This document shows positions 639-34,129 of a stretch of DNA of 64,000 nucleotides, piece by piece. The notes beneath the pieces were generated by a model. That model made no database searches. It was given only the letters and a program-made list of their open reading frames with translations, and was not told the DNA's origin. The stretch lies in NCBI RefSeq assembly GCF_964204645.1, contig NC_134029.1, positions 17,230,950 through 17,294,949 on the forward strand, read 5' to 3'. Origin of the DNA: Tubulanus polymorphus (taxonomy: Eukaryota; Animalia; Nemertea). The translations under genes were made by a program, and so were the position numbers. How positions within the stretch are numbered: the first letter of the stretch is position 1; the number at the start of each line of letters is the position of its first letter.

Positions 639-891
639 GTGTTATGAAATATTAAAATTTTAACTTTAGTAAAAATTTATATAATAAATGGAAGGAGGTA
701 AAGTATATGAACGGATAAAAGCTGATAAAGAAATCAATGATAATTTATATTATGTAATACCTTATAAAAGAATAAATGAATATATTGGAATATTGTTATT
801 AAATGAATTAAATCAATACAAAGAATATTTAATTGAATGTAATAATGATATAAATAAAAAAGATAATATTAATGATAATATAGATAATATT

Positions 892-1005
892 CCTTCTACA
901 TCTAATAATGTTATACCTTCTACATCTAATAATGTTATACCTTCTACATCTAATAATGTTATACCTTCTACATCTAATAATGTTTTACCTTCTACACCCA
1001 ATAAT
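892..1005 (+). repeat. In-frame 24-bp tandem repeat (PSTSNNVI), about 4.7 units
   Basis: cct tct aca tct aat aat gtt ata is repeated; copy B has 3 diverged units at about 9547-9620. Confidence 0.95.
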
Positions 1006-1273
1006 GAAATAATATTAAAATATAAGGATAAAATAAATTATTTTGTGGTTATTGTAATGGTGAATTTTCAAACAATCCATCAAATTGGAATAAACAAATG
1101 AATACAGCTTCACATATTAATAATGTAATAGATCGTGTTGGTATAAGAGAATTTATAGAACACCCATTTACATATGTTACAAAGTTTGTTTCAAATAAAA
1201 AAGTAAATGGTAAAGAATTATATGAAGATTTATTACGTGATTTCTTATTAGCAGCACCTAATAAAGATGAATT

Positions 1274-1542
1274 TCGAGTTAATTAAGTCGAATTTCGAGT
1301 TTTATTTTCATGTCGAATTTCGACTTAATTAGTCGAAATTCGACTTGACTAACACGAAATTCGACTTATTAAGTCGAAATTCGACTTATTATGTCGAAAT
1401 TCGACTTATTAAGTCGAAATCCGACTTATTATGTCGAAATTCGACTTATTATGTCGAAATTTGACTTATTAACACGAAATTCGACTTATTAAGTCGAAAT
1501 TATGAAAAAAAATATCTCATATGTCACCTAGGGGCTTCCGTA
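1274..1542. mobile_element. Truncated non-autonomous DNA element with an internal 20-bp palindromic minisatellite
   Basis: About 11 units of aagtcgaaattcgacttatt, ending in atgtcacctaggggcttccgta. It is absent at the equivalent site in copy B (PNKDE-LDL-TDANE). Confidence 0.7.
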
Positions 1543-1882
1543 ACGATGATAATGAAAATATAGTTACAGGAAAGCGTATTGATAATAAAGATTATGTGGA
1601 CACACTTTTAGCGAAAGATAAAGTAGAAACTATTGATGATGCGGTAGAAAGGATGTATAAGTATAAAAACAAAACAACTATTGATAAAGATTCGGTAAAT
1701 AGGATGAAAAAGGATTATGATGAAGAATTCGAAGAAGATACGGTAGAGAAATTGAATAGAGAAATTGATAGAGTCTGATGATGAAAGTGATTCAAGTCCT
1801 AATTATTTTCATCTCAAATAATAATATTGGTTGAAAATTGTATAAATAGTATTTATTTTAAAAAATGGGACTTAAGCATTAA

Positions 1883-1995
1883 GGTACTTAGTAAGGTACC
1901 AAGTAACTGGTGCTTAGTAAGGTACCAAGTAACAGGTACCAAGTAACTAGTAAGGTACCAAGTAACTAAGTAACATACTAAGTACTTAGTTACTT
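1883..1995. repeat. Short tandem repeats (agtaaggtaccaagtaact-like) in the convergent intergenic spacer of copy A
   Basis: aggtaccaagtaac occurs 4 times with degenerate flanking units. Confidence 0.85.
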
Positions 1996-2003
1996 AAAAT
2001 ATC

Positions 2004-2612
2004 TTATTTTATAAACTTATATTCATATGGAAATTGAAGCCTCAGTAATAATTTTGAACCTTTATTATCCTTTAATTAATTCATATATTCATCATGTAAC
2101 TCAGTAGGTATTATTTGATTTTCTTCCAATGATTGTTGCGTAGATTTTCTATCTTTATTGTAGAATAAAACTAGAAATCTTATATTCTCCCTAAAATCTT
2201 GAATTGAATTATATTTTTGATTTAAAACCCATGTTGTTATCCCGAAATGTCTCCCAGAGAAAGCTAGATAACATAACTCACTTTCTCTAACTTTTGAATC
2301 ATGTAAATTTGCGCAATCATCTATAATGAATAATGTATTTGATCCTTCATAAGTATCAATTGCTATTTTAATACAATTATCTAAATTTTCTTTTACTGTT
2401 TTAGGATCTAATATAATAAACTTTTTCATCTTAAGTATATCTCTATTATATGTTTTATTCATTTCATAAGTAGGACAGAATAATATTATATTATCAAAAT
2501 GATTCTTATAAATAGTTTCTAACAAATCTAATATGAAATGTGTTTTACCACAATTGGTTACTCCAGTTATTAACATATTATGCGGTTCAAATATAAATAA
2601 ATCTTTATTCAT
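2004..2612 (-). pseudogene. FtsK/HerA (A32-like) DNA packaging ATPase (copy A), premature stop at 2076
   Basis: Walker A GVTNCGKT, Walker B FIIDD and the SGRHFG arginine motif are present; the C-terminus continues as in copy B. Confidence 0.9.
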
Positions 2613-3690
2613 TTATTCTTTTAATTTTACTAGATTAAATCCATTCATTAAATTTATCATCGTATCCTTTATATTTCACCAGAGAATACTTTTTTCCTTT
2701 AAGAGTTTTTGTTTTCAATACTTTTTCTATTTTGTATTCTATTTCATCTGGGTTTGGTACAAGTGATAATTCTTGCTCATAGAAATAACCTAATATTTCT
2801 TCATCTTTTAGATCTTCTAGTTTATAAACAAATGGTTTAGTTAATATTATTTTTTTGATTTTAAATATTTCTTCAGTAAAATTTGGGGTATAACCTTTAT
2901 AAAATGTTTTTCTATATTTAGATATTCTAACGTGTTGTCCTATTTTAAATTTAGGTTCACCGAAATCATGTGTAACATACGCTCCATATAAATTATTCCA
3001 AACTATTTCTGAATAATCTTCTTTTCTAGCATTTATTGGTTTCATATTTATAGAACTATGTTTAGAATTATTATAACCTTTCACTAAATCATCTAATATA
3101 TCAATATATTTATATGTTTCATTAGCAGTAAAATATTTCCACATTCTAGTTTTCAATGTTTTATTAAATCTCTCTATAATAGATGCTTTTTTATCTGAGT
3201 GTGTTGAAAAATAATCTACATCGTTATCAGATAATAGTTTTTTGAAATGTTTGTTATAAAATTCCTTACCTTCATCAAATTGTATCTTATCTGGAATAGC
3301 TTCTTTAAATATATTCTTAAAAGCATTTGTAACTTCTATTCCAGTTTTATTTTTGATTGGAATTGACCATGCGGATCGACTGAATATATCTATAACATTT
3401 AATATCCAGAAATATCCTTTGTTGTATTCCTCTAAGTTCTTCATGTCAATTAAATCTGCTTGCCATTGTTGATCGATATATGAAATCATAACTTTTCTTG
3501 TTAAATAAGTTTTATCCATTTACTTGTGGATTTGATATGTTGGTTGATTTTGTAACCATAATCTTAATTCACTATATTTTATATTTTCTTTATCGGATTT
3601 AATGTTATCCCATAATTCTGAAACGTTAGAATATGATACTTCACTTTCTGGGTTATAATATAACTCTCTTAAATATTGTTCTTTTTTCAT
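2605..3690 (-). pseudogene. Retroviral-type (rve) integrase with C-terminal chromodomain (copy A), nonsense codon at about 3520
   Basis: WQADLIDM / IQFDEGKEF / IIERFNKTLK DDE triad and YKIEKVL..YSLVKYKGY..FNEWI chromodomain; AAA-to-TAA change relative to copy B. Confidence 0.92.
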
Positions 3691-3696
3691 CTTATT

Positions 3697-4068
3697 TTAA
3701 TCAATTAATAATAATTTAGATTTAGTTTCAATGATTTTATCATTTGATTTATTTTCTGGTATAATAGGTTTATTATCATTGGAATCATTATTGTTATAAT
3801 CAGATTTATACTTATATTTATATATTACACCGGAGAATATAATAATTGTGATTAACCCAATTGTAATATATAAGTAATTATTTCTTCCACTATTAGAAGC
3901 ATTAGATGGATTATTATTTGAATCAATATCAGATAATTTCTGTGATTCATTTATATCAGTTAATTTTTTTTTCTTAGCTCTTTTTAATTCTGCAGATCTT
4001 TCACCCAATTCTCTAGCCCATTTAATTTGTTTCACGGATCTAGCCTTTTTCTTAACACCATCACTCAT
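3697..4068 (-). CDS. Polinton small basic protein with one transmembrane helix (copy A)
   Basis: Open 123-aa ORF homologous to 6544-6912; hydrophobic segment YLYITIGLITIIIFSGVIY. Confidence 0.8.
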   Translation of the reverse strand: MSDGVKKKARSVKQIKWARELGERSAELKRAKKKKLTDINESQKLSDIDSNNNPSNASNSGRNNYLYITIGLITIIIFSGVIYKYKYKSDYNNNDSNDNKPIIPENKSNDKIIETKSKLLLID

Positions 4069-4669
4069 TTATTTTAGTTAATTTTTGTTCTGATTCATTT
4101 TCTGTTTCACCGTTTGGTTGTCGAACGGCGCCATCTGTTTCGTTCTTACCTGATTTATATTCCATAGGCTTGATATTCGAAAATGTTATGACACCAGTAG
4201 AAATTAATGTCATAACCGATCCTAATTGGAATGAAGCGTATCCGATCCATTTTTGTAATTCAGTCATAACTAAGTAGTCATTTTTCAAATCACTATATAA
4301 TTTATTTTCATCATCAATTGACATTAACCGGTTACATAACTTATAGTAACATTTGACAATACTATCTGAAATAGAATCATTTATTCGAGCCAATCTTGCC
4401 TCTTCATAAATCTTAAAATATTATATTACTTTATCTGGTTTCATAGAGTCTAGTTCTTGAAAAGTAATGGTCTTAGTTAAAAATTGTTTACATTTACCAC
4501 TAGCAATTAGTAACTCAAGATGGTGTTTACAATGTAAATAGTATTCATAATCAATATTGTTATTGATATTATTTTCAATTTTGGCCGGAATATCCTTATT
4601 ATCACTAATGCCCAAATCATCTAATGTTTTTTCAATATCAATACTATTCTTACTCGATTTCTTTGACAT
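4061..4669 (-). pseudogene. Polinton hypothetical protein (MSKK..., about 200 aa; copy A), broken at about 4421
   Basis: The two ORF halves join to match 5943-6551. Confidence 0.8.
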
Positions 4670-4909
4670 TTATATTAGAGAAATTTAATAAGAAAAATAT
4701 TATAATATTTTAATACTAGCTAGTTAAGTTATTGATACTAAATTGACTAGGTTAGTTAAAGTTATTGTTTTTTTATTTGAATCTATTCAAAATATAAAGT
4801 ATTCTCTTTTTAAAAAGAATTACAAAAGAAAATATTAAAAATATGAGAATTCACTGGTTAGTTGAAGATATGTAATTTCTATTAAATTTTATTTGAATTA
4901 TATTATTCT

Positions 4910-5569
4910 TTAACCGCTTTCAATATATTGTTCATTATTCGGATCATTGTTCCATTGATCAATAAATTTCTTTGCCTTTGTTAACTGTTCTAAATATAAC
5001 TGTAAATCTAGTTTATTAAATTTTATTCTATTTTCTTTCTTTTCGAGTGGCCTTAAATTTTTCCAATTCCAAATTAGTTTTTTATTGTGTTCATCACTCA
5101 AGTTAAATTTAGATATCGGTAACACATGATCAATATGAAAATAATCTCCATAATTATCTATAATCATTTGACTATCGAATTGAAATATAATCCATGATTT
5201 GAGAAATTCATCTGAACAACCCAACAAATTAGATAGTGTTTCTGAATGTGTTTCTTTGTTGAATAATTGTCTTAATCTAGATCTTAAGCATTGTTTCAAT
5301 CTAAAATTAAGATCTGTTTTATATCTTTCTCTCATATATTCTGTCATATATTCATTATAAGCTTCTCTATTATCTTCTCGGTATTGTTTGGCATATAGTT
5401 TAATACAAGTTTTACAGCAATATTGAAAACCATCTTTGCCAATCTTACGCTTATTAAATTCTGTTAAAGCTAATTTATCTAATTCACATTTAGAACACTT
5501 CTTGTAGTATATATTTATGACACCAGTGTTATTTGTAATATTGATAGTTTGTGGTTGTTCTGATTCCAT
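4910..5569 (-). CDS. HNH endonuclease with N-terminal zinc ribbon, of the type common in giant viruses and phages
   Basis: KKCSKC...CCKTC, LLGCS..FL..WI..QF, NYG.YFHIDHVLP, NWKNLRPL...EN..K; intact 219 aa. Confidence 0.85.
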   Translation of the reverse strand: MESEQPQTINITNNTGVINIYYKKCSKCELDKLALTEFNKRKIGKDGFQYCCKTCIKLYAKQYREDNREAYNEYMTEYMRERYKTDLNFRLKQCLRSRLRQLFNKETHSETLSNLLGCSDEFLKSWIIFQFDSQMIIDNYGDYFHIDHVLPISKFNLSDEHNKKLIWNWKNLRPLEKKENRIKFNKLDLQLYLEQLTKAKKFIDQWNNDPNNEQYIESG

Positions 5570-5589
5570 TTATTATACATATTTTTTTA

Positions 5590-5848
5590 CTAAATTGATT
5601 TTAGAAGTTCAATGATTTATATCATGAATTATTTCAATCATTATTTACTAACACTTTTAATGTTTAAAAACTCACACAAATATGAATATTGAAATAATGT
5701 TGTAAATATATACTTTTATATTGAATAATCTGTCAATTTAAATGTTATTCATGGACATGATTATTTAAAGAGTAATAGGGGTAATGGGCTTTCAGGTTAA
5801 AGGTTGAATGGTCGAGTTCATTAAAAACAAATATTAAAAGTAATTTAA
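5590..5848. repeat. Inner part of the Polinton terminal repeat; direct-orientation copy of about 21556-21818
   Basis: About 260 bp of close match (aattgattttagaagttcaatg...agagtaataggggtaatgggctttcaggttaaaggttgaatggtcgag...aagtaatttaa). Confidence 0.9.
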
Positions 5849-5942
5849 TTTACCTTTAACTAAGCTAGTATTAATCTAAAGAGATACTGGTATCATTTTA
5901 TAATACTTATAATATTTTTCCTATTAAATTTCTCTAATATAA

Positions 5943-6551
5943 ATGTCAAAGAAATCGAGTAAGAATAGTATTAATATTGAAAAGACATTAGATGATTTGG
6001 GTATAAGTGATAATAAAGATACAGTTGTAACTAATTGTGCTCAAGTTAATTGTAATATTGATTATGAATAATATTTATATTGTAAACACCTTCTAGAATT
6101 ATTAATTGCTGGCGGGAAATGTAATCAGTTTATCGGGAAAATAATTACTTTTCAAGAATTAGATGCTATGAAACCCGATAAAGTAATAAAATATTTTAAG
6201 ATTTATGAAGAAGCTAGATTAGCTAGAATAAATGATTCTATTTCAGATGGTATTGTCAAATGTTATTCTAAGTTAAGTAACCAGTTAATACCAATTGATG
6301 ATGAAAATAAATTATATAGTGATTTGAAAAATGACTACTTAGTTATGACTGAATTACAAAAATGGGTTGGTTATGCTTCATTTCAATTAGGATCGGTTAT
6401 GACATTAATTTCTACTGGCGTCATAACATTTTCGAACATCAAGCCTATGGAATATAAATCAGGTAAGAACGAAACAGATGACGCTGTACTACAACCAAAC
6501 TTCAAAACAGAAAATGAATCAGAACAAAAATTAACTAAAATAAATGAGTGA
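5943..6551 (+). pseudogene. Polinton hypothetical protein (MSKK..., about 202 aa), in-frame stop at about 6068
   Basis: TAAATG start at 5943 is in frame with ORF 6168-6551; homologous to 4061-4669. Confidence 0.8.
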
Positions 6552-6912
6552 TAGCGTTAAGAAGAAGCCTAGATCCGAGAAACAAATTAAATGGGCAAGA
6601 GAATTAGGTAAAAGATCTTCAGAATTAAAAAAAGCTAAGAAAAAGAAATTAACTGATATAAATGAATCACAGACTTTATCTGATATTGATTCAAATAATA
6701 ATCCATCTAATTCTTCTAATGCTGGAAGTAATTATAAATTATATATTACAATTGGATTAGTAACAGTTATTATATTATCCGGTGTAATATATAAATCAAA
6801 ATTCAAATCTAATGATAAATATGATTCCAATGATAATAAACCTATCATACCAGAAAATAAGTCAAATGATAAAGTCATTGAAAATAAACCAAGATTATTA
6901 TTAATGGATTAA
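6544..6912 (+). CDS. Polinton small basic protein with one transmembrane helix
   Basis: Lys-rich N-terminus and LYITIGLVTVIILSGVIY segment; open in both copies. Confidence 0.8.
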   Translation: MSDSVKKKPRSEKQIKWARELGKRSSELKKAKKKKLTDINESQTLSDIDSNNNPSNSSNAGSNYKLYITIGLVTVIILSGVIYKSKFKSNDKYDSNDNKPIIPENKSNDKVIENKPRLLLMD

Positions 6913-6918
6913 AATAAG

Positions 6919-8010
6919 ATGAAAAAAGAACAATATTTTAGAGATTTATATTATAACCCAGAAAGTGAAGTATCATATTCTAGTATTTCAGAATTATGGG
7001 GTAAAACTAAATCTGATAAGGAAAATGGTGATATAAAATATAGTGAATTGAAATCATGGTTACAAAATCAACCAACATATCAAATCCACAAGAAAATGGA
7101 TAAAACTTATTTAACAAGAAAAGTTATGATTTCATATATCGATCAACAATGGCAAGCAGATTTAATTGACATGAAGAACTTAGAGGAATACAACAAAGGA
7201 TATTTCTGGATATTAAATGTTATAGATATATTCAGTCGATCCGCATGGTCAATTCCAATCAAAAATAAAACTGGAATAGAAGTTACAAATGCTTTTAAGA
7301 ATATATTTAAAGAAGCTATTCCAGATAAGATACAATTTGATGAAGGTAAGGAATTTTATAACAAACATTTCAAAAAATTATTATCTGATAACGATGTAGA
7401 TTATTTTTCAACACACTCAGATAAAAAAGCATCTATTATAGAAAGATTTAATAAAACATTGAAAACTAGAATGTGGAAATATTTTACTACTAATGAAACA
7501 TACAAATATATCGATGTGTTAGATGATTTAGTGAAAGGTTATGATAATTCTAAACATAGTTCTATAAATATGAAACCTATACAAGCTAGAAAAGAAGATA
7601 ATTCAGAAATAGTTTGGAATAATTTATATGGAGCGTTTGTTACACATGATTTTGGAGAACCTAAATTTAAAATAGGACAACACGTAAGAATATCTAAATA
7701 TAGAAAAACCTTTTATAAAGGTTATACCCTTAATTTTACAGAAGAAATATTCAAGATTAAAAAGATAATATTAACTAAACCATTTGTTTATAAATTAGAA
7801 GATCTAAAAGATGAAGAAATATTATGTTATTTCTATGAACAAGAATTATCACTTGTACCAAATCCAGATGAAATAGAATACAAAATAGAAAAAGTATTGA
7901 AAACAAAAACTCTTAAAGGAAAAAAGTATTCTCTGGTGAAATATAAAGGATACGATGATAAATTTAATGAATGGATTTTATCTATTAAAATTAAAAGAAT
8001 AAATGAATAA
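6919..8010 (+). CDS. rve integrase with C-terminal chromodomain, intact ORF
   Basis: LYYNP...WL..Q..YQIHK N-terminus, DDE triad and chromodomain; 363 aa. Confidence 0.95.
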   Translation: MKKEQYFRDLYYNPESEVSYSSISELWGKTKSDKENGDIKYSELKSWLQNQPTYQIHKKMDKTYLTRKVMISYIDQQWQADLIDMKNLEEYNKGYFWILNVIDIFSRSAWSIPIKNKTGIEVTNAFKNIFKEAIPDKIQFDEGKEFYNKHFKKLLSDNDVDYFSTHSDKKASIIERFNKTLKTRMWKYFTTNETYKYIDVLDDLVKGYDNSKHSSINMKPIQARKEDNSEIVWNNLYGAFVTHDFGEPKFKIGQHVRISKYRKTFYKGYTLNFTEEIFKIKKIILTKPFVYKLEDLKDEEILCYFYEQELSLVPNPDEIEYKIEKVLKTKTLKGKKYSLVKYKGYDDKFNEWILSIKIKRINE

Positions 8011-8609
8011 AGATTTATTTATATTTGAACCGCATAATATGTTAATAACTGGAGTAACCAATTGTGGTAAAACACATTTCATATTAGATTTGTTTGAAAC
8101 TATTTATAAGAATCATTTTGATAATATAATATTATTCTGTCCTACTTATGAAATGAATAAAACATATAATAGAGATATAGTTAAGATGAAAAAGTTTATT
8201 ATATTAGATCCTAAAACAGTAAAAGAAAATTTAGATAATTAAAATAGCAATTGATACTTATAAAGGATCAAATACATTATTCATTATAGATGATTGCGCA
8301 AATTTACATGATTCAAAAGTTAGAGAAAGTGAGTTATGTTATCTAGCTTTCTCTGGGAGACATTTTGGGATAACAACATGGGTTTTAAATCAAAAATATA
8401 ATTCAATTGTTAAAGACTTTAGGGAGAATATAAGATTTCTAGTTTTAATTTATAACAAAGATAAAAAATCTATGCAACAATCATTGGAAGAAAATCAAAT
8501 TATACCTACTGAATTACATGATGAATATATGAATAAATTAAAGAATAATAAAGGTTCTAAATTATTACTGAGATTACAATTTCCCTGTGAATATAAATTT
8601 ATAAAATAA
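8003..8609 (+). pseudogene. DNA packaging ATPase (copy B), frameshift at about 8240
   Basis: Walker A GVTNCGKT; after a small deletion relative to copy A the frame resumes with FIIDD, SGRHFG and RENIRF. Confidence 0.9.
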
Positions 8610-8616
8610 CTATTTG

Positions 8617-8990
8617 TATATCTATGTATTAGATACCCTAATACCTGATATCCCATTAGATACCCCAATACCTGATACCCTATTAGATACCTTGAATACT
8701 TAAAACCCCCTTTTTTAAAATAAATATTATTTATACAATTTTCAACAAATTTATTTTTATTTTTTCAACTAATATATGAATAAGTTTGAAAATAATAAAG
8801 GTTATTTATTATTACTGAGGTTTCAATATAAATTTAAAAAAGAAATATAATTTAAGGTATTTTAAAATAATATGTATTAGATATGTATTAGATATGTATT
8901 AGATACCCTATTAGATACCTTAAATACTTAAAACCCCCTTTTTTATTTACTATTATTTTATACAATTTTCAACTAATATTATTATTTGAG
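8617..8990. repeat. Convergent intergenic spacer with tattagataccc / tattagatatg repeats and a duplicated aaaaccccctttttt..atacaattttcaac block
   Basis: Repeat tracts at about 8620-8695 and 8870-8925; duplicated block at about 8700 and 8930. Confidence 0.8.
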
Positions 8991-9008
8991 TTAAATATAA
9001 TTAATATC

Positions 9009-9812
9009 TTAATCAATTTCATCATCACTCTCCAATTCACTATCAGACCCTAACAATTTATTTAAATTCTCTACCGAATTTTCTTCTTCAAATTCTCTAT
9101 TATTTTTATACTTATTCTTCACCTTTTTTACCGCATCATCAATAGTTGTTTCATTGTTATGCTTATTCATCCAATCAAATTTATCATTATTTTCTACTTT
9201 ATGTTTCATAGAATCTTTATTAGTGTTTGCTCCTAATATTTCATTTACAGTGTTTGATCCTTATATTTCATTAGCATCGGTTAGATCTAATTCATCTTTA
9301 TTAGGTGTTGCTAATAATAAATCTTCATATATTTTTTCACCATTTACTTTTTGATTTGAAACAAACTTTGTGACATATCTAAATGGGTGTTCTATAAATT
9401 CTTTTAAACCAACAGGTTCTATAACATTATTTATATGTACCCTTGTATTCATATGTTTATTCCAATTTGATGGAGCGTTTGAAAATTCACTTTTACAATA
9501 TCCACAATAATTTCTATTTTCACTAACATTTAATATTATTTCATTATTAGATGTAGAAGGTATTACATTATTACATGTACAAGGTATTACATTATTACAT
9601 GTAGTAGGTATTACATTATTATCAATTACATTACTTAAATTATTAACAACTTCACTTTTATTATTATCGATTTCTATTAGTTTAGTTTTATAATTTTTGA
9701 AAATAGGATCAAATATCAAAGCTATATTACAAGGTATTACATAATATAAACCATCATTATTTTCATGTGTAGCGATGTATGGAATATGTTTATATACTTT
9801 ACCTCCTTCCAT
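9009..9812 (-). pseudogene. Polinton zinc-finger protein with acidic tail (copy B), broken at about 9261
   Basis: YCGYCKSEFSNAPSNWNKHMNTRVH C2H2 motif; the downstream ORF 9009-9209 matches 1521-1778. Confidence 0.75.
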
Positions 9813-9844
9813 TTATTATATAAATTTTTATTAAAGTTAAAATT

Positions 9845-11091
9845 TTAATACATAACACTATTCAATTGTGAATTTACAATATTTAATTGTGCGTCAGATA
9901 TAATATAAATGTGCATTTTAAAATTTTTGATTCCTTTATTTTTTGTCATGAATGATTGTATTCCATCGTTAGTGTTCTGTAATTTTTTTCCAGAACCATG
10001 TAATGAATTATCCTCTGTTGTTCTAAAATCTAACCATAATGCATATTTATTACCGGTATAATAATCAATTTGATTAATATTACAATTTTCAGATGATTTT
10101 ACTTTTTTATTCATAAAATGTTTTCTAATTTCTGGCCATTGATCAATAATTCTCATTCCTTGACAAAATATTTTATTTGCTATTCCTTCGATAGTTATTT
10201 CTACTTTTGTTATTTCAGGATTATAATAATTATCAACATTTATTGCGCCATTAGTATATGTTGCAATGGTAAAAAATATTAATATACCTTTAATAGATCT
10301 TCTCGGGAAGTTAATATTCTCATTAATAATTTCATCATTTGCATTAATAGTTACAGTTTTAAATTTATCAATATAATCATATAATAATGAAAATCCTTGA
10401 TTGTATTGAGTTTGAATTATACTTGCAATATTTTCATCAGTTACTGTGTCATATTCTAAACATATATTCGATAATTTATAACTCATATCTTTATTAACGC
10501 TAGATATTACAATTTCATTTACAGGAGCAAATGTTATTTCGAATATAACATCTTCTTGAATTGCGTATTTATATAAAGGCGCATTATTATTTATCAATTC
10601 AAAGTCTAATGGAATTTTATATTTGATTCCATATATACTTTTTATCAATTTATCTAAGCATTAGTTAATATTGCGCTATTAGCTTCTGATCTTAATTTAT
10701 TTTGGTTTTCTGATTGGATGCCTTGAAATATCATATTATTTCTATTTTCTTTAGTTAACCATAAATCTTTATAATGCATAATTAAATTATAATCATCTAA
10801 TGAGAAAACTGTTTCTGGACCAATCTTTATAGTTAATTTTCTAATCAAATATCTCCCAACATTATCAACAACAGAATTATTATTATTACCGATTACTTTT
10901 ATATCGGCTGATAAATAAATACTATTTGGAACATAAAAAGTATTTTGTGTTAATCTCGGAATTCTAACATATAAAGTTTCATCGGGATTAATATTAGAAG
11001 GGTTATGAGTAATTATATGATGTGATCTTTCTGCTTTAATAGCATTAGATATTCTATGATTCTTAGAAGGATTGATATAACTCCCACTCAT
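9845..11091 (-). pseudogene. Major capsid protein (probable double jelly-roll), split at about 10650
   Basis: About 415 codons and beta-rich, with ITHNPS.I...E.L.VR.P, YKDLW, LSNICLEYDTV and YALWLDFRT..DNSLHGSG motifs that I recognise from invertebrate polinton capsids; context also fits. Confidence 0.8.
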
Positions 11092-11111
11092 TTATTTAAC
11101 AAAAAAATTAA

Positions 11112-12544
11112 TTATTTATTTTTTATCATATTCACTAACCCAAAAATAATTGCACTTACAACTGTAATTAAAAATAAAATAATATGTTCAGCAGCAAAGT
11201 TAAGAATATTCCCAGCAGATTTCAATATAAAACCAACAATTGATGCAATAACTCCGGGTAAAGCTGCAGCAGATTTTTTAGATAGTTCCCATGAATATTT
11301 TGCTAATTTCTTTAAACCATCCTTAACTTTATCTTGTATAGAATTATTATCATTCGGGGGTTTATCCGGTTTATTGGGAGTAGGAGTAGATTTCAGTGAA
11401 TTTGATACAGCTAAACCTATTGTTGTAAATACCATAGTTACTGCTGTTAGAATTGAAAGAATTGTGATTCCTTCAAACTTAAATAATAATCTTATTCTAT
11501 CTTTCAATGATATTTCAGAATTTGGTTTAATTATTAAATCTTTAACAACAACTTTTAATCTATTAATACAATAATCATATGATTTTTTAAATAATTTCAT
11601 TTCTTCTTTCTGAAATTCTATGTTATATTCTAAATTATCAATTTCTTTTTCTAAATACGCATTTCTTTTTTTTAATTCGATTTCTTCAATAACTTTATTA
11701 TCTCCGATTCTTTTCTTGATTTAAATAATTCATCTTCTAAATTTCTAATTTTTAAATCTCTTATACTTTTATCATGCGCAAATTTATCAGCTTTATTTTG
11801 TATACTAATAATTTCTCTAATTGCTTTATCAGAAAATATATTTAAATCTTCTAATTCTTGTTTTGTTGCATCAAGTAATCCATTTGGTAAAAGTTTTTCA
11901 GTTTGAACTCCTCTTGAATTAGGTTTACTAGTTTTGGAAGTTATATTCTGTTCAGAAGTTGTTTCTGTTTCTAAATTATTATCGATTGTTTCAAATAATT
12001 CATAAATTCTTTGTTTAAATACTCTTTCATTTTTAATAATTTCTTCTTGTGTTACATCTTCTATTTCATTACTATTTCTTATTCTTTTAATTCTAGAAAG
12101 GTCTAACTTAAGCAAAGTTGATTCTGCTAATATTTTGTTTTGTTTTTTATAAGAGATATCAATATAATAATCATCTTTCAAATGATAATAATATTCACCA
12201 TCTAATGATTTTAATTCTCTTACTAAATATCTAGCACCTCTATCATTGATATTATATCCTGATCTTTCAAATATAGGTTTGAAATTATAAATATATTCAT
12301 TATATTCTAAATTTTGTTTTACTAAATCTGGATTTTCATTTTCAGGATTTATTCTCGATCTAGTTCTTCTATCAAATTCATCTGTTGATGGGCCTTTAGA
12401 ACCACTATCTGCTAAATTAGAATTATATGCTGATTCATTACCATCATCAATATTAGTTTCTGCATCATTATAATCATCATCAATATATCCTTCATTATTA
12501 TTTCCTATGCCTTCCATTTCATAATCTTCTCCACCTTCTGCCAT
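11112..12544 (-). pseudogene. Large acidic/coiled-coil protein with C-terminal multi-pass membrane domain; frameshift in a poly(A) run at about 11665
   Basis: ORFs 11672-12544 and 11112-11600 flank an A-run; three hydrophobic segments lie at the C-terminus. Confidence 0.7.
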
Positions 12545-12559
12545 TTACATAATAAAAAA

Positions 12560-13861
12560 TTAAAATTTAAAATACAATATTCCTCCTATAACAATTCCTA
12601 TACAAGTTAAAGCTAATTTAGTATTTTCATGGGATTTATTATCATCATTTAGTTTAATTATATCATGTTGAATATTATCAGTTTTTATATTTTCTGATGT
12701 ATTGTAATCTTTTATTTTAGAATCATTATTTAACTTAATATTCTTAGTTTTAGTTTCTGTTGATTGAATATGTTTTTTATTTTTTTCACCTTCCATTAAT
12801 TTTGGAGCGGTAATAATCTTTTTATTTATATCATTCAATCCAAATGAATTATTTATTGTTGCAGCTTTAATTAGATTGTTATAACCAATTATATTTCCCA
12901 TCTTTAATACTAAATCATTAGAAATAATTAATAGATTAGGGCCTATACAATAATTTAATCTAATATGTGATTTATCTAAATAATTTTGATATCTTACAAT
13001 GTTTTCTGGAATCGATCTATTTTTATCATTATGAATTGAATCTTCAAATAATACTTTGAATTGTTTCTGCGCATCGAATGAAGTGTTATCATTTCCAACT
13101 ATTGGTGATCTTGTTTCAACTTGTGCACCTAAAATACATATCAAATAAGTTCTAATAGATTGATTTATTCTTTGTATACCTGATTTTGTAAAACCTTCAC
13201 CATTTTCTAAAATGAAATTAACCCAACCATTATTATTATCAATTTTATAATTATGATAAGCTCCAATTCTATGCATATAATCAATTCTTTTTATTTCATA
13301 CTCTTCACCAACACCTTGCAATTTACCATGCGCTCTAAAATCGGAATTAATATTTATATTAAATTCATTACATATTTTATAAAACTTAGATAGATTAATA
13401 TTATTATCCAATTCTTTAAAATATTTAGACCCGGGTAAAGGACATTTTAATTCATTTAATATTATTCTGATTTGAAAATATGTGTGAAATCTAAATATTG
13501 TGTGAATTAATTTTAAATCAGAATACTTCAAGTTTTTATCTAAGTTATTTAAATGATCATTCCAACTTATTCCACATCCTGTTGTTGCACAATAAACAGC
13601 AAAATTTAATTGATTCTGCCAATATTTCATATTAGATTTTACTTTATATATATGGTATTCATCTCGAGTAAAAGTAACTTCATATGTATTAAATATATTT
13701 TCCATTTTAGAAATAAAAAACTGTGATTCAGTAACATAAATTTCTAAATTAGTTAATGAATTTAAAACTTCATTTCTATATGTAATATTTTTCTTAAAAT
13801 CTATTGCAGGAATATTATATTTAATTGATTTATTATATTGGAAAGCTTTTGGAAACCCCAT
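12560..13861 (-). CDS. Polinton 433-aa protein with C-terminal membrane anchor, function unknown
   Basis: Intact ORF ending LALTCIGIVIGGILYFKF; conserved in copy C (32376-33755). Confidence 0.8.
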   Translation of the reverse strand: MGFPKAFQYNKSIKYNIPAIDFKKNITYRNEVLNSLTNLEIYVTESQFFISKMENIFNTYEVTFTRDEYHIYKVKSNMKYWQNQLNFAVYCATTGCGISWNDHLNNLDKNLKYSDLKLIHTIFRFHTYFQIRIILNELKCPLPGSKYFKELDNNINLSKFYKICNEFNININSDFRAHGKLQGVGEEYEIKRIDYMHRIGAYHNYKIDNNNGWVNFILENGEGFTKSGIQRINQSIRTYLICILGAQVETRSPIVGNDNTSFDAQKQFKVLFEDSIHNDKNRSIPENIVRYQNYLDKSHIRLNYCIGPNLLIISNDLVLKMGNIIGYNNLIKAATINNSFGLNDINKKIITAPKLMEGEKNKKHIQSTETKTKNIKLNNDSKIKDYNTSENIKTDNIQHDIIKLNDDNKSHENTKLALTCIGIVIGGILYFKF

Positions 13862-13877
13862 TTATATAATTAAAAAA

Positions 13878-14312
13878 TTAATAATTAACTAATTCTTTTA
13901 ATAATTTATCTTGTTCTTCAACTGTTATATGACCATTTAAACTTATTATATAATCTAGTGTATTCTTCAATTTATTAATTTTTTTTATATTAGTTTTAAT
14001 TTTTTCTTTATTACTTTTTATATTTAATTTTGAACTTATGCCGGTTAAAACACTTGAACTTAATCCTAATACACCAATTGATATAGCTAAAGGTGTTAAT
14101 GGACTGAATATTGCTAGAAATGTTATTACAGAACTAATTGTAACTGAACCACTTATAATCAAATAATATATAATTTTACTTTTTAAATATTTTTTCTTTT
14201 TTATCTTTAAGTCACTTTCAAATTCTAATATTTGTTTTTCTAAATATATTTTTAATTTAGTTTTACTGATATCATGAGGAATGATATCAATATTATCAAC
14301 TTTATCTTCCAT
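13878..14312 (-). CDS. Polinton 144-aa coiled-coil protein with two predicted TM helices
   Basis: IIYYLIISGSVTISSVITFLAIF and LAISIGVLGLSSSVLTGI segments; homologue at 31931 in copy C. Confidence 0.8.
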   Translation of the reverse strand: MEDKVDNIDIIPHDISKTKLKIYLEKQILEFESDLKIKKKKYLKSKIIYYLIISGSVTISSVITFLAIFSPLTPLAISIGVLGLSSSVLTGISSKLNIKSNKEKIKTNIKKINKLKNTLDYIISLNGHITVEEQDKLLKELVNY

Positions 14313-14331
14313 TTATTTAGAAAAAAAATTA

Positions 14332-14752: not shown

Positions 14753-14776
14753 TTATTTAGTAAAATAATAACGCAT

Positions 14777-16100: not shown

Positions 16101-16117
16101 TTATTTTACATATTCTC

Positions 16118-20076: not shown

Positions 20077-21740
20077 AAATCTCCATATATAACAAATGGT
20101 ACTTTATTTTTGTAATCATATTTTTTGAATTCTAATATTTTATCTTTTTCATTTGGTAAAACTAATTTACAATAATCATGATTTTCACATAATTGTTTAT
20201 GATTTAATTATGTACTTTCACTACTGAATCTATGTAAACATTTTCTACAAAGATATATTTTAGGGTGATCATTTTCTGATTTAAAAAATAAATCGATTTG
20301 TTTAATCCACATATAATGATTCTCATAATATAGTATATCTATAACATCATTTGAATCATAATCTTTTGATAGATATAAAGGTTCTAATGTATAATGTTTT
20401 ATATTGTTACCTTTTGTATTTGGTAATTTGATTAAATCAAATACATTTATTCTTAAATTATTATCTCTTTCTATCTTTGGGACGTTTTTAATTCTAACAG
20501 GATACTTATCTATCTTATAATTATTTTCAAATGGTTTATAATGAGTTAATCTAAAACTATGTTGTTTATAATCTTCAACTGGGTGTAAACAACTTATTAT
20601 AGCCCATAGAAAACATTTATCATCTTCATTTTGTACATTTATTACAGCATTAGTTTTAAATGGTAGTTTAATATAACTCGATGCTTCAATATCTGGTTCT
20701 TTATAATATGATACATTATTTTCATCAATTGGTTTTGATTTAGTTAACTTATTATATTTTGTGTTATAAACATGTAAAGTCATAAATATTATTTCATCAA
20801 ATATTAAACCAGATCCTTCAAAATATTTCTCTTCTATTTTAGTTTTTACTTCATTATAACATTTATCTAATTTATCATCTATATGTTGTTTATATATAAT
20901 ATGTTGTGAATGAGAATTTATATTATATATTGGTTTATCTTCAGATTTTATAAACTTTACTTTAACTGATATACTAATTTTAGGATATTCAACATCTGTA
21001 ATTATTTTTGTTATTTCTTTCATATTTTCTAAATGTTTTTTCATTTTCTTCTAATGTTTTTCCTTTATGAAATTTAAACTCGATAGCTGCTGGGCCAATA
21101 TCACTTTTAAATGCTTCGGTTATCTCTATATCTTTTTTATTATCTAATGAATTAATATATTTTCTTACATCTTCCATATATGGTCTTTTATTGTTTAATT
21201 TATTTTTTATGCTTTTAATTGTCTTCTGTTTCTTATCATTATCTTTATCAAAATAATCTTCACCTAAAATAACATTATTCATATTTCTAATATGACTTTT
21301 AGATTTTAAATGTTCTTTATAATATCTTTTATCACTGAATGATTGATTACATGTATCACATTTGTATGTTTCTTTTTCATTCTTTAATTCATCTAATTTA
21401 GTTTCTAATATATCATCTTCATATTCTAATTTCAATTTATTCTCTAAATGTGTTTTAGTTTCATTGTGTCTTGCTTTTTGGGATTTATCTATATTGATAT
21501 TACATGTTGGACAGTAGTACTTATTTGCTTCCATTTTAATGCTAAATTTTTTATTAAAATTGATTTTAGAAGTTCAATGATTTATATCATGCATTATTTC
21601 AATCACACTTTACTAACACTTTTAATGTTTAAAAATCTAACTCATACAAATATGAATATTGAAATAATGTTGTAAATATATACTTTTATATTGAATAATC
21701 TATCAATTTAAATGTTATTCATATACATGATTATTTTAAG

Positions 21741-22140
21741 AGTAATAGGGGTAATGGGCTTTCAGGTTAAAGGTTGAATGGTCGAGTTCATTAAAAACAA
21801 ATATTAAAAGTAATTTAAAACTATAATATATTTTCATAACCGTGTGTATTTCAGTTGAATAATAGAATAATTATTATTATTAAAATATATTTGATTATAT
21901 GAATTTGTGTATTGTAAATAAATCAATTGGTCGCGAAGCGGAGCGGCAGCGAAGTGGAGCGACCAATTGATTTAATACAATATGCTTTTAAAATTTAAAT
22001 TATTGATATCGTAGAATAAATATTTAGTTATAATATAAAATGCACACGGTTATGAAAATATATTATAGTTTTAAATTACTTTTAATGTTTTATTTTTTAA
22101 TGAGCTCGACCGTTCGACCTTACCCATTACCCCTATTACT
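21741..22140. repeat. 400-bp imperfect palindrome in the Polinton terminal region
   Basis: Pairing arms are 21741-21758/22123-22140, 21803-21846/22043-22086 (44 bp perfect) and 21919-21934/21959-21974 (16 bp perfect). Confidence 0.92.
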
Positions 22141-22237: not shown

Positions 22238-22347
<110 letters not shown>

Positions 22348-22469
22348 GAGTAATAGGGGCTTTCAGATTAAAGGTTGAAAGGGCGAGTGAGTAAAAAATG
22401 AAAAAATATGAAAATAACAATAATTTCTGTTTGAATTAGTAGCGAAACTCATGAAAAATAAATTCGAGC

Positions 22470-27290: not shown

Positions 27291-30200
27291 AAAGTCTCAC
27301 ATCGAGGCAGAGAAAGAAATATTTCCGGGAAAGATTAAAAGACGCAAAACAAACATACTTATTGTTCGCTTTTTTTCCTATCCTTAATTTAAAAGTGAAG
27401 TATTGTCATGAACAATTAATTAATTTTTGATGATCAATTAATTCTGTGGTTTTCTTTCTTAATTTACATTTGATTTGATATTTACATTTGATTTGGAAGG
27501 TCATCTTGCTCAGGAGTCAGTTTGTCAAAGCATCGAAAAAATGTTGTTTAATTCTCAGTTGCAGCGGGGGCAGGGCGGTCATTATTTTGCCAACTTATCC
27601 AAATTACACTTACACAACCCAATGTGTTTCACTGTGTAAACTCCATCGTACTCGGCATTAGCGGGACGTTGAGGAATTGAATTTTAGCCACCTGGACCCT
27701 CGGCTTGATTCGAGCAACGACCTTAACTGAATTCACAGAATTGGATTATGAGTCTAGTATTTTCTAAATTTCCGAATGCTTTTTCTGGTTTGATCAATTC
27801 CAATTCAATCTTGAAATTTACAAATAATTTGTCAAATAGATTTTTATTTTATTGAAAGAAAATCTACTGAATACAGATTTTGAAATTAATTATGTGTCGA
27901 TTTATCCAGACGAAATAACTACAGCAAAATCAACTGAGGATCAACAAGGCGAAGTTTTCATTTATCTTCGGATAATTTGACTACCCCTGATGATGATACA
28001 TGCATTTTGGCGACACATTTTGAAACCTCAACGCTTTATCTACCCGCGCCGATTAGACAGCCACAGTCGATTTTCATGCCATCTGACCTCTTTCTACCTG
28101 TAATTAAGCAATCAAATGTAATAGTTACTCAGTTATATAATATCGTAGAGGAGCGAAAGAAAGTATCATAGAATGTGTATCATATCATTCAATGTGATTG
28201 CGATAATGAATTTAAAAGTTTAATCCTAATAATAAACCTTTGAATATGTTAGTTTTATAATCATTTTTAAAATATTTAACTTTTAAATGATTAAATCAAA
28301 TAACAATTTAACATTTTATCAATTTAACAGTTCATTAACTAATTTCACAATGTTTTAACTATTATATATTTGAAATTTTCAAATTACTCATACAGCTTAA
28401 TCTTTTTTTAATATAGAATTATTATTCTTTCCATAATTGATATGTTTAATTGTGATGATATTTGATCAATCATAGTAATATCATCGATTTTAAATTGGCT
28501 TCCATACACTAAATTTGTTGCTGAGATATAATTTCTAATGTTAAATAATGAAAATAAGTTATCAATTTCAGACGATTTCTTCTCATTTCGCCTTTGGCCT
28601 AGGTGACCGAACACTAGCGCTCTTAGCGGTTGCGGCAAACATTTAAATCATGTGAATAGAAGTATTCGCGAAATCGAAAATTTCAGGTGGCCTTACCTGG
28701 CCAATAATTTTGCTGATTATGATTTTTTCCCGAACGAAGGTTGTTCAAAAACCTTAGCTAGGCCCAATCCTCCCATAAATAAGGGTAAAAAAATATTCTA
28801 GAGGGAAAGGTTTCAGCGAACTCAAACTCTTTTTTAATTTTTAACTTTTTAACTTTTTAAAATAAGAATTTAATATATAAATGAGGTGCTCAAAGTAATT
28901 AAAGATCCCGCGAAAGAAATGAATAATAAATACATGAATTCAATACTATATTTTTTAACTGCTAATAATAATTTAGCTGATATTTCAGGAGTAAATATAG
29001 ATTAGTATTATAAATCGGATAGAAATTAATTAATTGAAACGTCAGATATATTTTGCGATAATATAATGCTATATAAAATCATGTTAGAAAAAGAAATTAT
29101 TAATGATAATAGAACAACTTTTCTTAACGTTAATCAGAGAAAGATAACACATTATGAAATTAAAGAATGTTTTAATCAAGGAAATATTATATTAGATGAA
29201 AACATGAAAACAGCATGAAAACATCATTTCGACTTAAGTAATTATCCTAAAAATCATTAATTGTTTGACAATGACAATAAAAAGGTTGCCGGTAAATTCA
29301 AAGATGAATTAGGCGGTGAAGAAATGATAGAGTTCATAGGTATTAGATCTAAAATGTATACTTATAAAACTAAAGAACATGAATCAAAGAAATTACCAAA
29401 AGTGTAGTAGAAAAGAATATTCATTTCAAAGATTACATCAATTGTATATTCAATGAAGAAGTTAGAAAACATAAGATGAAATGTTTAAGATCTGAGTACC
29501 ACGAAATGTTTATTGAAGAAATAGAAAAGATGATAAAAAATGTATTTTAGATGATGGAATTCATACAGTCGCGGATGGTTGTAATTTAGATGAATACTTA
29601 AAGTTCAAAAGAGAAGAAACACAAGAGAATGAAATTATGAAAAGAACTCTAGCATGTTAATCAATTTTGATAAAAAAATTTGTTATTAAAATGGAGAGTA
29701 AACAAGTACACAGTGAGAAAAACAAATCATTTCTAGATAGAATCTTTTATACTACCAATAAACTGTGTACTAACAATGCTAGATCAGTAGATTATAAATT
29801 TAAAAAGTTAACAGAACTAACAATTCATAAGAAATATTTAATTACAAGTATTGAAACAATTACTAACAAATATGGAGTTAAATTAGTTATTCATTTAGAA
29901 TATGAAGGATTGAAAGGAAATAAATATAAATTCAGAACATATTTACCAGATAGATTTCATAGATAATCAAGTGAAGATCTAGAAGAATTATGTTCAGGTG
30001 ATTTCTATTACATATACAAAGGTATGAATGAAAAAGGACACCATGAAATAGAATTCGAATAAAATACATTAAATAAATGCAAGATAAATTAAAAGAATAT
30101 AGAATATTTGTTGATTCTAGAAAACTGTTAAATTCTAAATCGCATAATTTACTAGTACAATTAGATAGAGAATTTAGAAATTTTGTAGATTTGAAATTAG

Positions 30201-31214
30201 TAAATGTAATGTTTATGTAATTCTTTTTATAATATATCGGATAAAACTTTCGAACATAGAAGGTTTATGATTTATTTGAGAAATAAAAATAAATGGTTTC
30301 ATCTATTTCTAAAACCAGGATTATATAATTTAGAATCATTAGCGCAGGAAATTAATGGAAGAGCTCCGTTGAAAATCGGGGGCACTACTCTGCTGAATTT
30401 GAAATTAAATTCAATAAAATTGATAGTTCTAATATAATAAGAATAAAGTTATCTAATGAACAACATAAATTTATGGTAAACAAACCAGTAGCTAAAATGT
30501 TAGGAGTTAAACCGCATATTGTTATTGGAAATGCAGAAGGTAGCTCAAATATAATACCTTTTACGCACTTTTATATTTATTGCAATTTAATTGATCCTAC
30601 AAAAACATTTGAAGCAACTAAAGATACAATTTGTAATTCTAGTTTATTAAATATTTTACCATTAAAAAATGTTACACAATTTGGAACTCAAATAAATTAT
30701 AATTTAACTGAATGTGATTTTAAACCTTGTATTCCACAATTTAATAATTTTAAATTAGAAGTAAGAAATCATAATGGATACTTAATTGATTTAAATAATT
30801 TTCCTGTAATTTATGAATTAGTTATAAGATGTAAAGAAAAATTTTTTCACTATATAAATGAATTAACAGTAGGACCGAGTATATGCTTTGGGTTTGATTT
30901 GAAACGTGAGAAAGAAGTGAAATTTTAAATTAATGATGTGATAACTCATATCAAAAATATTGCATTTTTAAATGAAACAACATTTGATTATGAAACAACA
31001 ATAAATAAAGAAACTTTAAATGTAGAAAAGATCACTGATTTAATTAGAGAATCTTTAAGATTTTATGAATTAGATGAAGATTTTATTATCGATGATATTA
31101 AAAGAATAATAACTGAAATATATGAAAATTAAACTAATAATATCATAAATGTTGAAATAATTATAACTAAGTTAACTAAATATTTTGAAGATAATAATTT
31201 TTTTTGATAAATAA

Positions 31215-31442
31215 ATGAATGATAATCAGCGGATAATAAATGGATTATATAATGGAGCATTACTATCAGTTGGAACTGTTGGTTATACAATGGTATTAAA
31301 AAAAGTATTCAAAATTGGAAGTATTAATGTTGATAAATTTGAAATAAATGATATTTTAAAATTAACGTTAGCAGTTACTTTATCTAATTTAACAATTGAT
31401 TATTTGGAAAAACAAAAATATATTCCTCCTATAAATCCATAA
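31215..31442 (+). CDS. Polinton 75-aa hydrophobic protein (copy C)
   Basis: Homologue of 14777-14998; TAAATG start. Confidence 0.72.
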   Translation: MNDNQRIINGLYNGALLSVGTVGYTMVLKKVFKIGSINVDKFEINDILKLTLAVTLSNLTIDYLEKQKYIPPINP

Positions 31443-31456
31443 TTTTTGTTAAATAA

Positions 31457-31879
31457 ATGGCTTCTGCAATTATAACTATTATAAGATCGGCAATTGTTAA
31501 CGCTTTAGCATTTACTGGTGGGGGATATTTGTTTAAGCATATCGATAAAAATAGTTCATTAGCAGAACAAAGAAGACATAACTTAGCGTTAGAGAAATAT
31601 AATAAAGCAGCAGAAGAGTATAGAGAAAAAAGACAAAACTATATGGATTATATTAACAAAGAATTATATAACCAAAATATTTCACATAGAGATTTTAAAT
31701 CATTCGATGATGCAATGAGTTTATATAATGCAGTAACAAATCATGAAAGATTACATCTATGTAAACCTAAATTATCAGATTATTATACACCAAGTAAAGA
31801 ACAACAGAAATATGAAATAATTTGGATTTTATGTGGAACAGTTATTGTAATATTTGTTGCGGATAAATTTACTCATTAA
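31457..31879 (+). CDS. Polinton 140-aa protein with hydrophobic ends (copy C, open frame)
   Basis: MASAIITII..AIVNALAFTGGGYLF...EQRRHNLALEKY; intact version of 14332-14752. Confidence 0.78.
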   Translation: MASAIITIIRSAIVNALAFTGGGYLFKHIDKNSSLAEQRRHNLALEKYNKAAEEYREKRQNYMDYINKELYNQNISHRDFKSFDDAMSLYNAVTNHERLHLCKPKLSDYYTPSKEQQKYEIIWILCGTVIVIFVADKFTH

Positions 31880-34129
31880 TTGCTTATTAATTTGTTGCTT
31901 ATTAATTATATATTATTTTTTGTTAAATAAATGGATGATAAAGTTGATAATATTGATATTATATCTCATGATATCAGTAAAACTAAATTAAAATCATATT
32001 TTGAAAAACAGATATTAGAATTTGAAAATGATTTAAAAGTTAAAAAGAAAAAATATTTAAAAAGAAAACTATATATTACTTTATTATTAGTGGTTCAGTT
32101 ACAATAAGTCCTGTAATAACATTTTTAGCAATATTTTCACCATTGACACCTTTAGCTATATCAATTCGTGTGCTCGGATTATCATCGAGTGTTTTAACCG
32201 GAATAAGTTCAAAATTAAATATAAAAGGTAATAAAGAAAAAATCTAATATAAAAGAAATAAATAAATCATAAAATACATTAGATTATATAATAAGTTTAA
32301 ATGGTAATATAACAATTGAAGAACAAGATAAATTATTAAAAAAATTAATTAATTATTAATTTTCTTATTATATAAATGGTAGATAGTTTTCCAAAAGCTT
32401 TTCAATATAAAAAAATCAATTAAATATAATATTCCAGCAATAGATTTTAATAAAAATATTACATATAGAAATGAAGTTTTTAAATCATTAATTAATTTAG
32501 ATATTTATGTTACTGAAACTAATAATTTTAATGCAAAGATGGAAAATATATTTCATGTATATTTAATTAATTTAAAAAAAATGAAAGATGAAAAACAATG
32601 GGTATTAAAATCTAATATGAAGTATTGGCAGAACCAATTAAATTTTTCAGTTTATTGCGCAACAACAGGTTGTGGAATTAGTTGGAATGATCCTTTAAAT
32701 AATTCAAAATATAAATCAATTCAAAGTTTATTTAGATTTCATACTTATTTTCAAAGAAGATTAATAATAAATGAATTAGAGGGTCCTTTACCAACTCTAG
32801 ATAATTTAAAGAATTAGACAATATTATTAATTTATCAAAGTTTTATAAAGTTTGTAATGAATTTAATATAAGTATAAATAATTTTGTTTTAGAACAAAAA
32901 TTGGAACAATAAGATCACTTCCTTGCCTTAAAAATGTTGCACAATATTGCGCACTTCCCTTACCAATTAAAAGTTTTTACAATATCTATAAAATTAAATT
33001 AGGTTATGGTAAAATAGAAAATATGGATTTAGAAACCTTAAATATCATTAAATTACCGAAATTTTGTCATCATTTAAAACAAGAAAAAAATAATGGTTGG
33101 GTTTATTTCATTTTAGAAAATAGTGAAGGATTTACTAAAATCAGGTATACAAAGAATAAATCGATCAATTAGAACCTATTTGATTTGCATACTAGGATCA
33201 CAGGTTGAAACAAGATCCCCAGTAATTGGAAATTTAAATACATCATTTGATACAGAAAAACAATTTAAAGTTTTATTTGAAGATTCTATTCATAATGATA
33301 AAAATAAATCTATTCCAGAAAACATTATAAGATACCAAAATTATTTAGATCAATCACATGTTAGATTGAATTATTGTATTGGTCCTAATTTATTAATTAT
33401 TTCTGATGATTTAATATTAAAGATGGGAAATATAATTGTTTATGATAATTTGATTAAAACTGCAACAATAAATAATAAGTTTGGAATAAATGATATAAAT
33501 AAAAAAAATTATCACTGCCCCAAAACGAATGGAAGGTGAAAAAAATAAAAAAACATATTCAATCAACAGAAACTAAAACTAAGAATATTAAATTGGATAA
33601 TGATTCTAAAATACATCAGAAAATAAAAAAAAACTGATAATATTCAACATGAAATAATTAAAACCAATAATGATAATAAATCACATGAAAATGCCTAATT
33701 AGCTATAACTTGTATAGGAATTGTTATAGGAGGAATATCATATTCTAAATTTTAAATTTCATAAGATAAAATTTATATTTCCATAAGATAAATGGATGTA
33801 GATGCAACATGTATGGTTACGTTTAAGATGTACGGTATAATAGTAATATGATAGGCCTATTGTATTTTATGAAACCATTCTCGACATGGTCGCAAAATAA
33901 AGCAGTTCGTCATCCAGAAATCATCCTGTGCCTTATACGTGTGTTATTATTTTGGATTGTTCTACCTGACTAGTTCCCGGCTAACACTCCAGACAAATTC
34001 AACGCTGTTACATAGAATTATTTCGATGACGCTTCCAAGTGCGATATATGAACCAGTTAGGTAGAAACCCGTTATCGCTGCAATGCAGCTATATTATTCA
34101 TATATCATTCATTAATATAACATCCACCA

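Follow-up and report, generated by a model that had tools for sequence, protein, structure and literature searches.

A TAAATG start motif with a positioned upstream T-run in a clade of Polintons, and its likely dependence on a poxvirus-type helper

In the portions of the literature drawn on here, vaccinia late promoters are described as having TAAAT(G) and, ten bases upstream, a conserved T, and vaccinia intermediate promoters as TAAA without that T (PMC11980589), and the poxvirus polymerase is described as reading TAAA itself (PMC12917281) and as adding a poly(A) leader through slippage (PMC4542343). Helper-matched promoters are already established for the mavirus-like elements of protists, in which the types of endogenous mavirus-like elements (EMALEs) differ in the motif carried (PMC8547959), and hyperparasitism on poxviruses has been proposed, from co-occurrence, for Polinton-like viruses found in entomopoxvirus occlusion bodies (PMC11296320). 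Here we analyze a stretch of 64,000 nucleotides from the nemertean Tubulanus polymorphus (assembly GCF_964204645.1, contig NC_134029.1, positions 17,230,950 to 17,294,949 of the forward strand; hereafter the window), in which positions 1-33800 hold three decayed copies (A, B and C, 80-97% alike) of one Polinton element whose genes start mostly at TAAATG. We propose that TAAATG with an upstream run of T probably serves as a promoter when a co-infecting virus of poxvirus type supplies its post-replicative RNA polymerase, and that the element would be virophage-like.

In copy B, TAAATG stands at 13 of 15 gene starts, compared with 23 of 368 other sense-strand ATGs (Fisher p=4e-13). An earlier note on this DNA had counted 12 of 14, with the integrase (TAAGATG) and pPolB (TAAAATG) genes as exceptions, and the present count has the same two exceptions. 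The motif is also kept, as had been claimed, in copy A (5 of 6 starts) and copy C (7 of 8, plus one TAAAATG), although all three copies are decayed or truncated. The TAA doubles as the stop codon of the upstream gene at only one of the ten tandem starts of the copy-B minus-strand block, in agreement with the note, and every upstream sequence quoted there was found in the window; the HNH gene that it had placed in copy B lies instead in copy A. The copies and their start regions, in window coordinates, are as follows.

1..5850, strand unspecified: Polinton copy A (partial), with the 3' part of the major capsid protein (MCP) gene, a zinc-finger gene, ATPase, integrase, two small genes, an HNH-type gene and terminal sequence
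about 5870..22140, strand unspecified: Polinton copy B, with 15 genes, several of them broken; left end truncated against copy A
about 28100..33800, plus strand: Polinton copy C (partial, decayed), with 7/8 starts at TAAATG
5567..5600, minus strand: A-tract (class 1) and TAAATG, copy-A HNH-type gene; terminal sequence as at the pPolB promoter
5920..5945, plus strand: TAAATG with a short T-run, g5943
6520..6546, plus strand: TAAATG, g6544, within the end of the upstream open reading frame (ORF)
6900..6921, plus strand: TAAGATG (exception), rve integrase-chromodomain gene
7980..8005, plus strand: TAAATG without T-run, A32-like packaging ATPase, within the end of the integrase
9810..9842, minus strand: A-tract (class 1) and TAAATG, zinc-finger gene g9812; motif also in the L005 and L008 orthologues
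11089..11111, minus strand: T-run and TAAATG, double-jelly-roll major capsid gene (late-like)
12542..12562, minus strand: T-run and TAAATG, membrane-protein gene g12544
13859..13880, minus strand: T-run and TAAATG, g13861
14310..14332, minus strand: T-run and TAAATG, g14312
14750..14772, minus strand: T-run and TAAATG, small hydrophobic gene g14752
14996..15018, minus strand: T-run and TAAATG, g14998 (TAA doubles as the upstream stop)
15353..15375, minus strand: T-run and TAAATG, g15355
16098..16120, minus strand: TAAATG without T-run or A-tract core, minor-capsid-like gene
16469..16500, minus strand: A-tract (class 1) and TAAATG, SSB-like gene
21532..21565, minus strand: A-tract (class 1) and TAAAATG, pPolB, within the terminal sequence

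Relatives were taken as the best 80 of 176 metagenome loci from a capsid alignment search, with ORFs called mechanically (first ATG, at least 70 aa); three loci that were marginal in the ATPase scan were excluded from the counts, and a quick, midpoint-rooted tree was built from the 64 loci with a near-full capsid and the window fragment. Among these relatives the motif is nearly all-or-none for each element, and the TAAATG-positive elements group in one MCP clade (SH-aLRT 100 in the quick tree), to which, L003 apart, the motif is restricted: the clade of the window (26 loci) carries TAAATG at 102 of 145 starts and its sister clade (38 loci) at 6 of 277. A further 28 Polinton-type loci of IMG/VR, found by polymerase or integrase, have it at 17 of 296 starts (5 of 13 in L229). 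The low GC of the window copies (23-25%) might invite an explanation by AT-rich chance or by stop-start coupling, yet the counts refute it and leave it exceedingly improbable, as TAAATG is found at 2 of 51 starts in the ten sister loci below 40% GC, the TAA is the upstream stop at only 6 of 47 tandem starts, and the motif is kept at 39-44% GC (6/6 starts in L077, 3/4 in L009). The pattern is not accounted for by AT content. L003 (38% GC) has a different gene set yet starts 7 of 7 genes at TAAATG, so that a second lineage may carry the motif. At the polymerase start of L001, a T-run and TAAAT lie just upstream.

After four near-duplicate loci were dropped, 103 TAAATG starts were available for counts of architecture. 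The ninth base upstream is T at 85% of them, against 34% of 61 internal TAAATG, and the tenth at 68%; the T share at bases 8-12 is 0.66, against 0.43 +/- 0.02 in shuffles, and was reached in 0 of 5000. The T-run peaks 9-11 nt upstream; each of three subgroups shows this peak, and L003 shows it weakly. When host contigs were compared with window 14290-15040, 31 variable places were found; the three TAAATG hexamers contain none of them and spacer positions 5-6 contain three, and the absence from the hexamers is not significant alone (about 0.5 chance). A role of the T-run as terminator of the upstream gene was considered and rejected, because divergent starts have the upstream T in 27 of 33 cases and tandem starts in 39 of 47. 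The promoter-like signal is real and clade-wide, and the poxvirus post-replicative architecture suggested by the note is supported across the clade, independently of GC, with a positioned T-run and without RNA polymerase II (Pol II) elements.

The last point bears on whether the host transcribes the element, by Pol II (or III) in the nucleus, from terminal repeats or a compact, viral-adapted core promoter, with TAAATG and the T-run serving the translation or processing of a polycistronic RNA. The element does integrate in the nucleus, coral polintovirus genes are described as expressed in tissue (PMC11131425) and AWTAAA is mildly in excess at gene ends. The motif does not weaken, however, at divergent starts separated by 14-37 nt, a setting with no place for read-through or reinitiation; divergent start codons are mostly at this distance or overlap, which leaves too little room for Pol II leaders. 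Base -3, moreover, is T in 92% of 72 core-gene starts, the poorest base for a Kozak context, while sister starts keep a purine there (83% of 65 low-GC and 71% of 142 high-GC starts). A pattern of TATA and initiator (Inr) consensus was found at 1 of 87 starts here, with 2.4 expected, while another Maverick group has it at 13 of 71, with 0.8 expected, and transcription by the host polymerase is, in our judgment, quite improbable. The contrast between the two groups suggests nuclear and helper-type Polinton lineages. The Maverick group with clear TATA+Inr promoters comprises L215, L219-L226 and L210. Two other signals were set aside: TATAAATG is rejected as a Pol II TATA box by geometry, since at the spacing of a TATA box from its start transcription would begin within the ORF, and depletion of T5NT was not used as evidence (coding-strand observed/expected, O/E, 0.49, but 0.67 in AT-rich sisters).

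In the reading that we favor, the motif would recruit the poxvirus-type polymerase of a helper, which would read TAAA directly and start transcription inside the AAA; slippage of the polymerase would then yield a 5' poly(A) leader, and this leader would provide the A-rich context that is otherwise missing with T at -3. The helper's cytoplasmic factory would be the place where the element is expressed and packaged, and its integrated copies would be a latent form. From sequence we infer that helper dependence is likely, and the helper itself, the position of the start, the leader, the location in the cytoplasm and any benefit to the host, which the note put forward as a possible antiviral role, are inferred as well.

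Several observations weigh against such a helper. In a motif scan of viral contigs no useful-length contig among the matches listed (at least 120 stretches) was dominated by TAAATG starts, the best having 4 of 11, and the matches listed were chance ones; a VLTF3-like query gave three weak N-terminal matches, and MCP queries of viral contigs gave no match. L017, L031 and L032, which lie inside the clade of the window, have 0 of 30 starts at TAAATG. Coding strands show no depletion of AATAAA (O/E 1.05, against 0.93 in AT-rich sisters), a result that does not discriminate, and AWTAAA is mildly enriched at gene ends (39/80 against 28.5), as expected of Pol II genes; the excess could come from the AATAAATG of the next gene. 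The sister clades are equally compact and also without TATA+Inr, so that compactness and the absence of TATA+Inr are not specific to TAAATG elements. Finally, poxviruses are not alone in using such a motif, as TAAAN initiators also occur in the yeast linear plasmids (PMC6211774).

This last similarity extends further: in the yeast pGKL elements the TAAAN initiator is described together with poly(A) leaders at the 5' end (PMC6211774), and ranavirus polymerase genes are described as having TAAAT upstream (PMC5294985). With the other start motifs and VLTF3-like genes of the sister clades, these cases speak for a viral-type polymerase other than that of a poxvirus, which might belong to another nucleocytovirus or be encoded by a linear element of the cytoplasm itself. 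TAAAT fused to ATG, with T about 10 bases upstream, is nevertheless the described layout of chordopox late promoters. No ATNTGA-type upstream box, the motif of pGKL, is prominent among the frequent 5-mers, and we hold a non-poxvirus polymerase to be unlikely. The VLTF3-like genes, which match the late transcription factor family PF04947 (two above cut-off, one weakly), are L062:5749-6387 (-), L028:388-933 (-) and L031:6543-7049 (+), and sit in three related Polintons without TAAATG; gene starts of L062 are rich in TATATA. These genes also count in favor of the poxvirus-type reading. The compactness of the sisters, their lack of TATA+Inr and the VLTF3-like genes of three relatives suggest a viral type of transcription across the wider group, under motifs that differ.

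The same VLTF3-like genes, together with conserved genes of no known function (g13861, g9812, g15355 and g5943), raise the thought that a factor or polymerase of the element's own reads the motif. The function-unassigned genes encode at most about 490 aa, however, which is probably small for a polymerase, and the scanned proteins, several of which have no assigned family, include no match to an RNA polymerase family of Pfam or NCBIfam and no catalytic motif; we regard this explanation as very unlikely.

The earlier note further divided the upstream regions by function, with an A-tract (class 1) before nucleic-acid genes and a T-run before capsid and membrane genes, and read the division as a two-stage programme. 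Its four class-1 examples in the window reduce to three independent loci, because the upstream regions of pPolB and of the copy-A HNH gene are one terminal sequence (90 nt, 91% identical, family D10), and the integrase, ATPase, minor-capsid-like gene and g6544 fall in neither class. By a pattern written after these examples, and hence post hoc, an A-tract is found in the near subclade at 7 of the 13 starts of nucleic-acid genes and at 1 of the 25 remaining starts (8/38; family-level p=0.02), against 0 of 51 starts in the rest of the clade. By an external criterion, T at base 10, nucleic-acid or ATPase starts have the T in 14 of 33 cases and others in 54 of 68 (family-level p=0.05; 0.09 without the ATPase): it is near-fixed at the capsid gene (15/17) and at two small membrane genes (10/10 and 5/5), and rare at pPolB (1/5), the zinc-finger gene (0/3) and the ATPase (4/12), whose promoter often lies within the neighboring ORF. 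Seven of the eight class-1 starts are without the T; the intermediate core lacks a consensus, and any AT-rich sequence fits it. By eye, the zinc-finger promoter shares TTTAACTTTAA, at a near-equal distance, with the vaccinia G8R intermediate promoter as given in PMC12917281, a single resemblance.

In L006, it is the minor-capsid-like gene that follows an A-tract, and the SSB-like and kinase genes follow T-runs. Host contigs join class-1 promoters to genes other than those in the window, so these promoters may have spread by cassette exchange. The division by function thus retains partial statistical support (p 0.02-0.09) and is suggestive, with an A-tract that is confined to the near subclade and that switches genes in L006, while the two-stage programme is weak on the same counts. 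That there is a second, intermediate-like A-tract class for replication genes, in the near subclade only, is possible but doubtful. The kinase gene of L006, a close relative, is a deoxynucleoside kinase gene with a T-run promoter (10343-10981, -).

The element is a Polinton, as identified by its rve integrase (PF00665 above cut-off, with a weak chromodomain match), A32-like packaging ATPase (PF04665, E=1.8e-11), pPolB and double-jelly-roll capsid. The capsid fold was predicted, at pLDDT 88, for P0001, a full-length homologue 76% identical to the broken MCP of the window; among known structures it matches the capsids of iridovirus, PBCV-1 and mavirus. pPolB consists of broken ORFs with PolB motifs; these ORFs gave no direct Pfam match and are 37-52% identical to full-length polymerases of Polinton-type loci. 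The minor-capsid-like gene belongs to a conserved family of ~230 aa, an unconfirmed assignment, that gave no PDB or Pfam match; the SSB-like label is a fairly strong Atlas lead from a homologue only, and g14312 has a weak SLATT-like match. The conserved 433-aa protein of g13861 (12560-13861, -) has a C-terminal hydrophobic helix, and its model (pLDDT 77) found no clear match in BFVD, PDB or a wide structure search (best Z 4.7), a result that excludes no family. No cysteine maturation protease, a feature of Maverick group 1, was found among the scanned ORFs, copy B being truncated and the loci of relatives partial. As for terminal inverted repeats and a 6-bp target duplication, a terminal palindrome is seen, in copies that are truncated and rearranged. 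The element may belong to Maverick group 2 or to the Aquintovirus-related animal lineage.

At the right end of copy B, adjoining a TA microsatellite, is a palindrome of ~400 bp with a GC-rich central hairpin (window 21740-22140), which may be a terminal structure or an inserted miniature inverted-repeat transposable element. pPolB is interrupted by a higher-GC insertion of ~1 kb with short inverted ends (19096-20068), whose ORF was read as retroelement-like and gave no Pfam match, and the zinc-finger gene of copy A by an array of 20-bp units (1294-1520). An ORF for a rhodopsin-family receptor and a BEL/Pao retrotransposon are also found in the window and point to animal DNA. Among relatives, a Bcl-2/Mcl-1-like gene is found within L031 (2448-2858, +) and also in L032, and a superfamily-1 helicase-type replication gene in GC-rich sister elements (L045:8797-11034 and L051:9970-13596).

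Whether and how animal Polintons are expressed as viruses is a question of long standing, and a defined promoter of 20 bases makes it testable. If the proposal is true, the motif would be silent in uninfected cells and active with a poxvirus polymerase, and transcripts would begin within the AAA and bear a poly(A) leader; poxvirus-like viruses would be expected in hosts for which none is described, and animal Polintons would divide into helper-type and Pol II-type lineages. A broader claim would be that these animal Polintons form a widespread clade of endogenous virophages whose helpers are poxvirus-like viruses yet to be discovered, with an intermediate-then-late programme on the helper's polymerase and possible protection of the host as in mavirus, that the motifs of sister clades track other helpers and that Polinton promoters map unknown large DNA viruses of invertebrates; taken jointly, these statements are speculative and rather unlikely to hold together. 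The full-text literature searched, with most subscription papers and supplements outside its scope, contained no report of TAAATG or poxvirus-type promoters in Polintons. By word search, "promoter" is absent from two accounts of Maverick-Polintons and adintoviruses (PMC8502044; bioRxiv 10.64898/2026.06.19.733378), and the main text of PMC11296320 gave 0 matches for promoter, motif, transcription or TAAAT.

As portrayed in the parts of those two accounts used here, Maverick-Polintons and adintoviruses (PMC8502044; bioRxiv 10.64898/2026.06.19.733378) share with this element pPolB, rve integrase, A32 ATPase, a double-jelly-roll capsid and integration in animal genomes, and differ in the maturation protease, not found among the scanned ORFs here. 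The entomopoxvirus-associated viruses (PMC11296320) are likewise animal Polinton-type viruses and proposed poxvirus hyperparasites, but are described with a cysteine protease and with a tyrosine recombinase or no integrase. Mavirus and the EMALEs of Cafeteria (PMC8547959) resemble it as integrating pPolB/rve elements with a motif that matches a giant-virus late promoter; they have a protist host, a known Mimiviridae helper and a TCTA motif, whereas here the host is an animal, the motif is TAAATG and the helper is putative. Compared with vaccinia, the mapping of genes to classes differs, because vaccinia expresses its polymerase and SSB genes early and its D13 gene, which has a capsid fold, at the intermediate stage, and the T peak lies here at the ninth base by the present count, with the tenth also enriched (68%). 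The vaccinia intermediate type, with an A-rich core without T, as for the A32 ATPase, has a counterpart in the 8 of 12 ATPase orthologues here without T, and the vaccinia late type, as described, has TAAAT fused to ATG and a T about 10 bases upstream, as in this clade.

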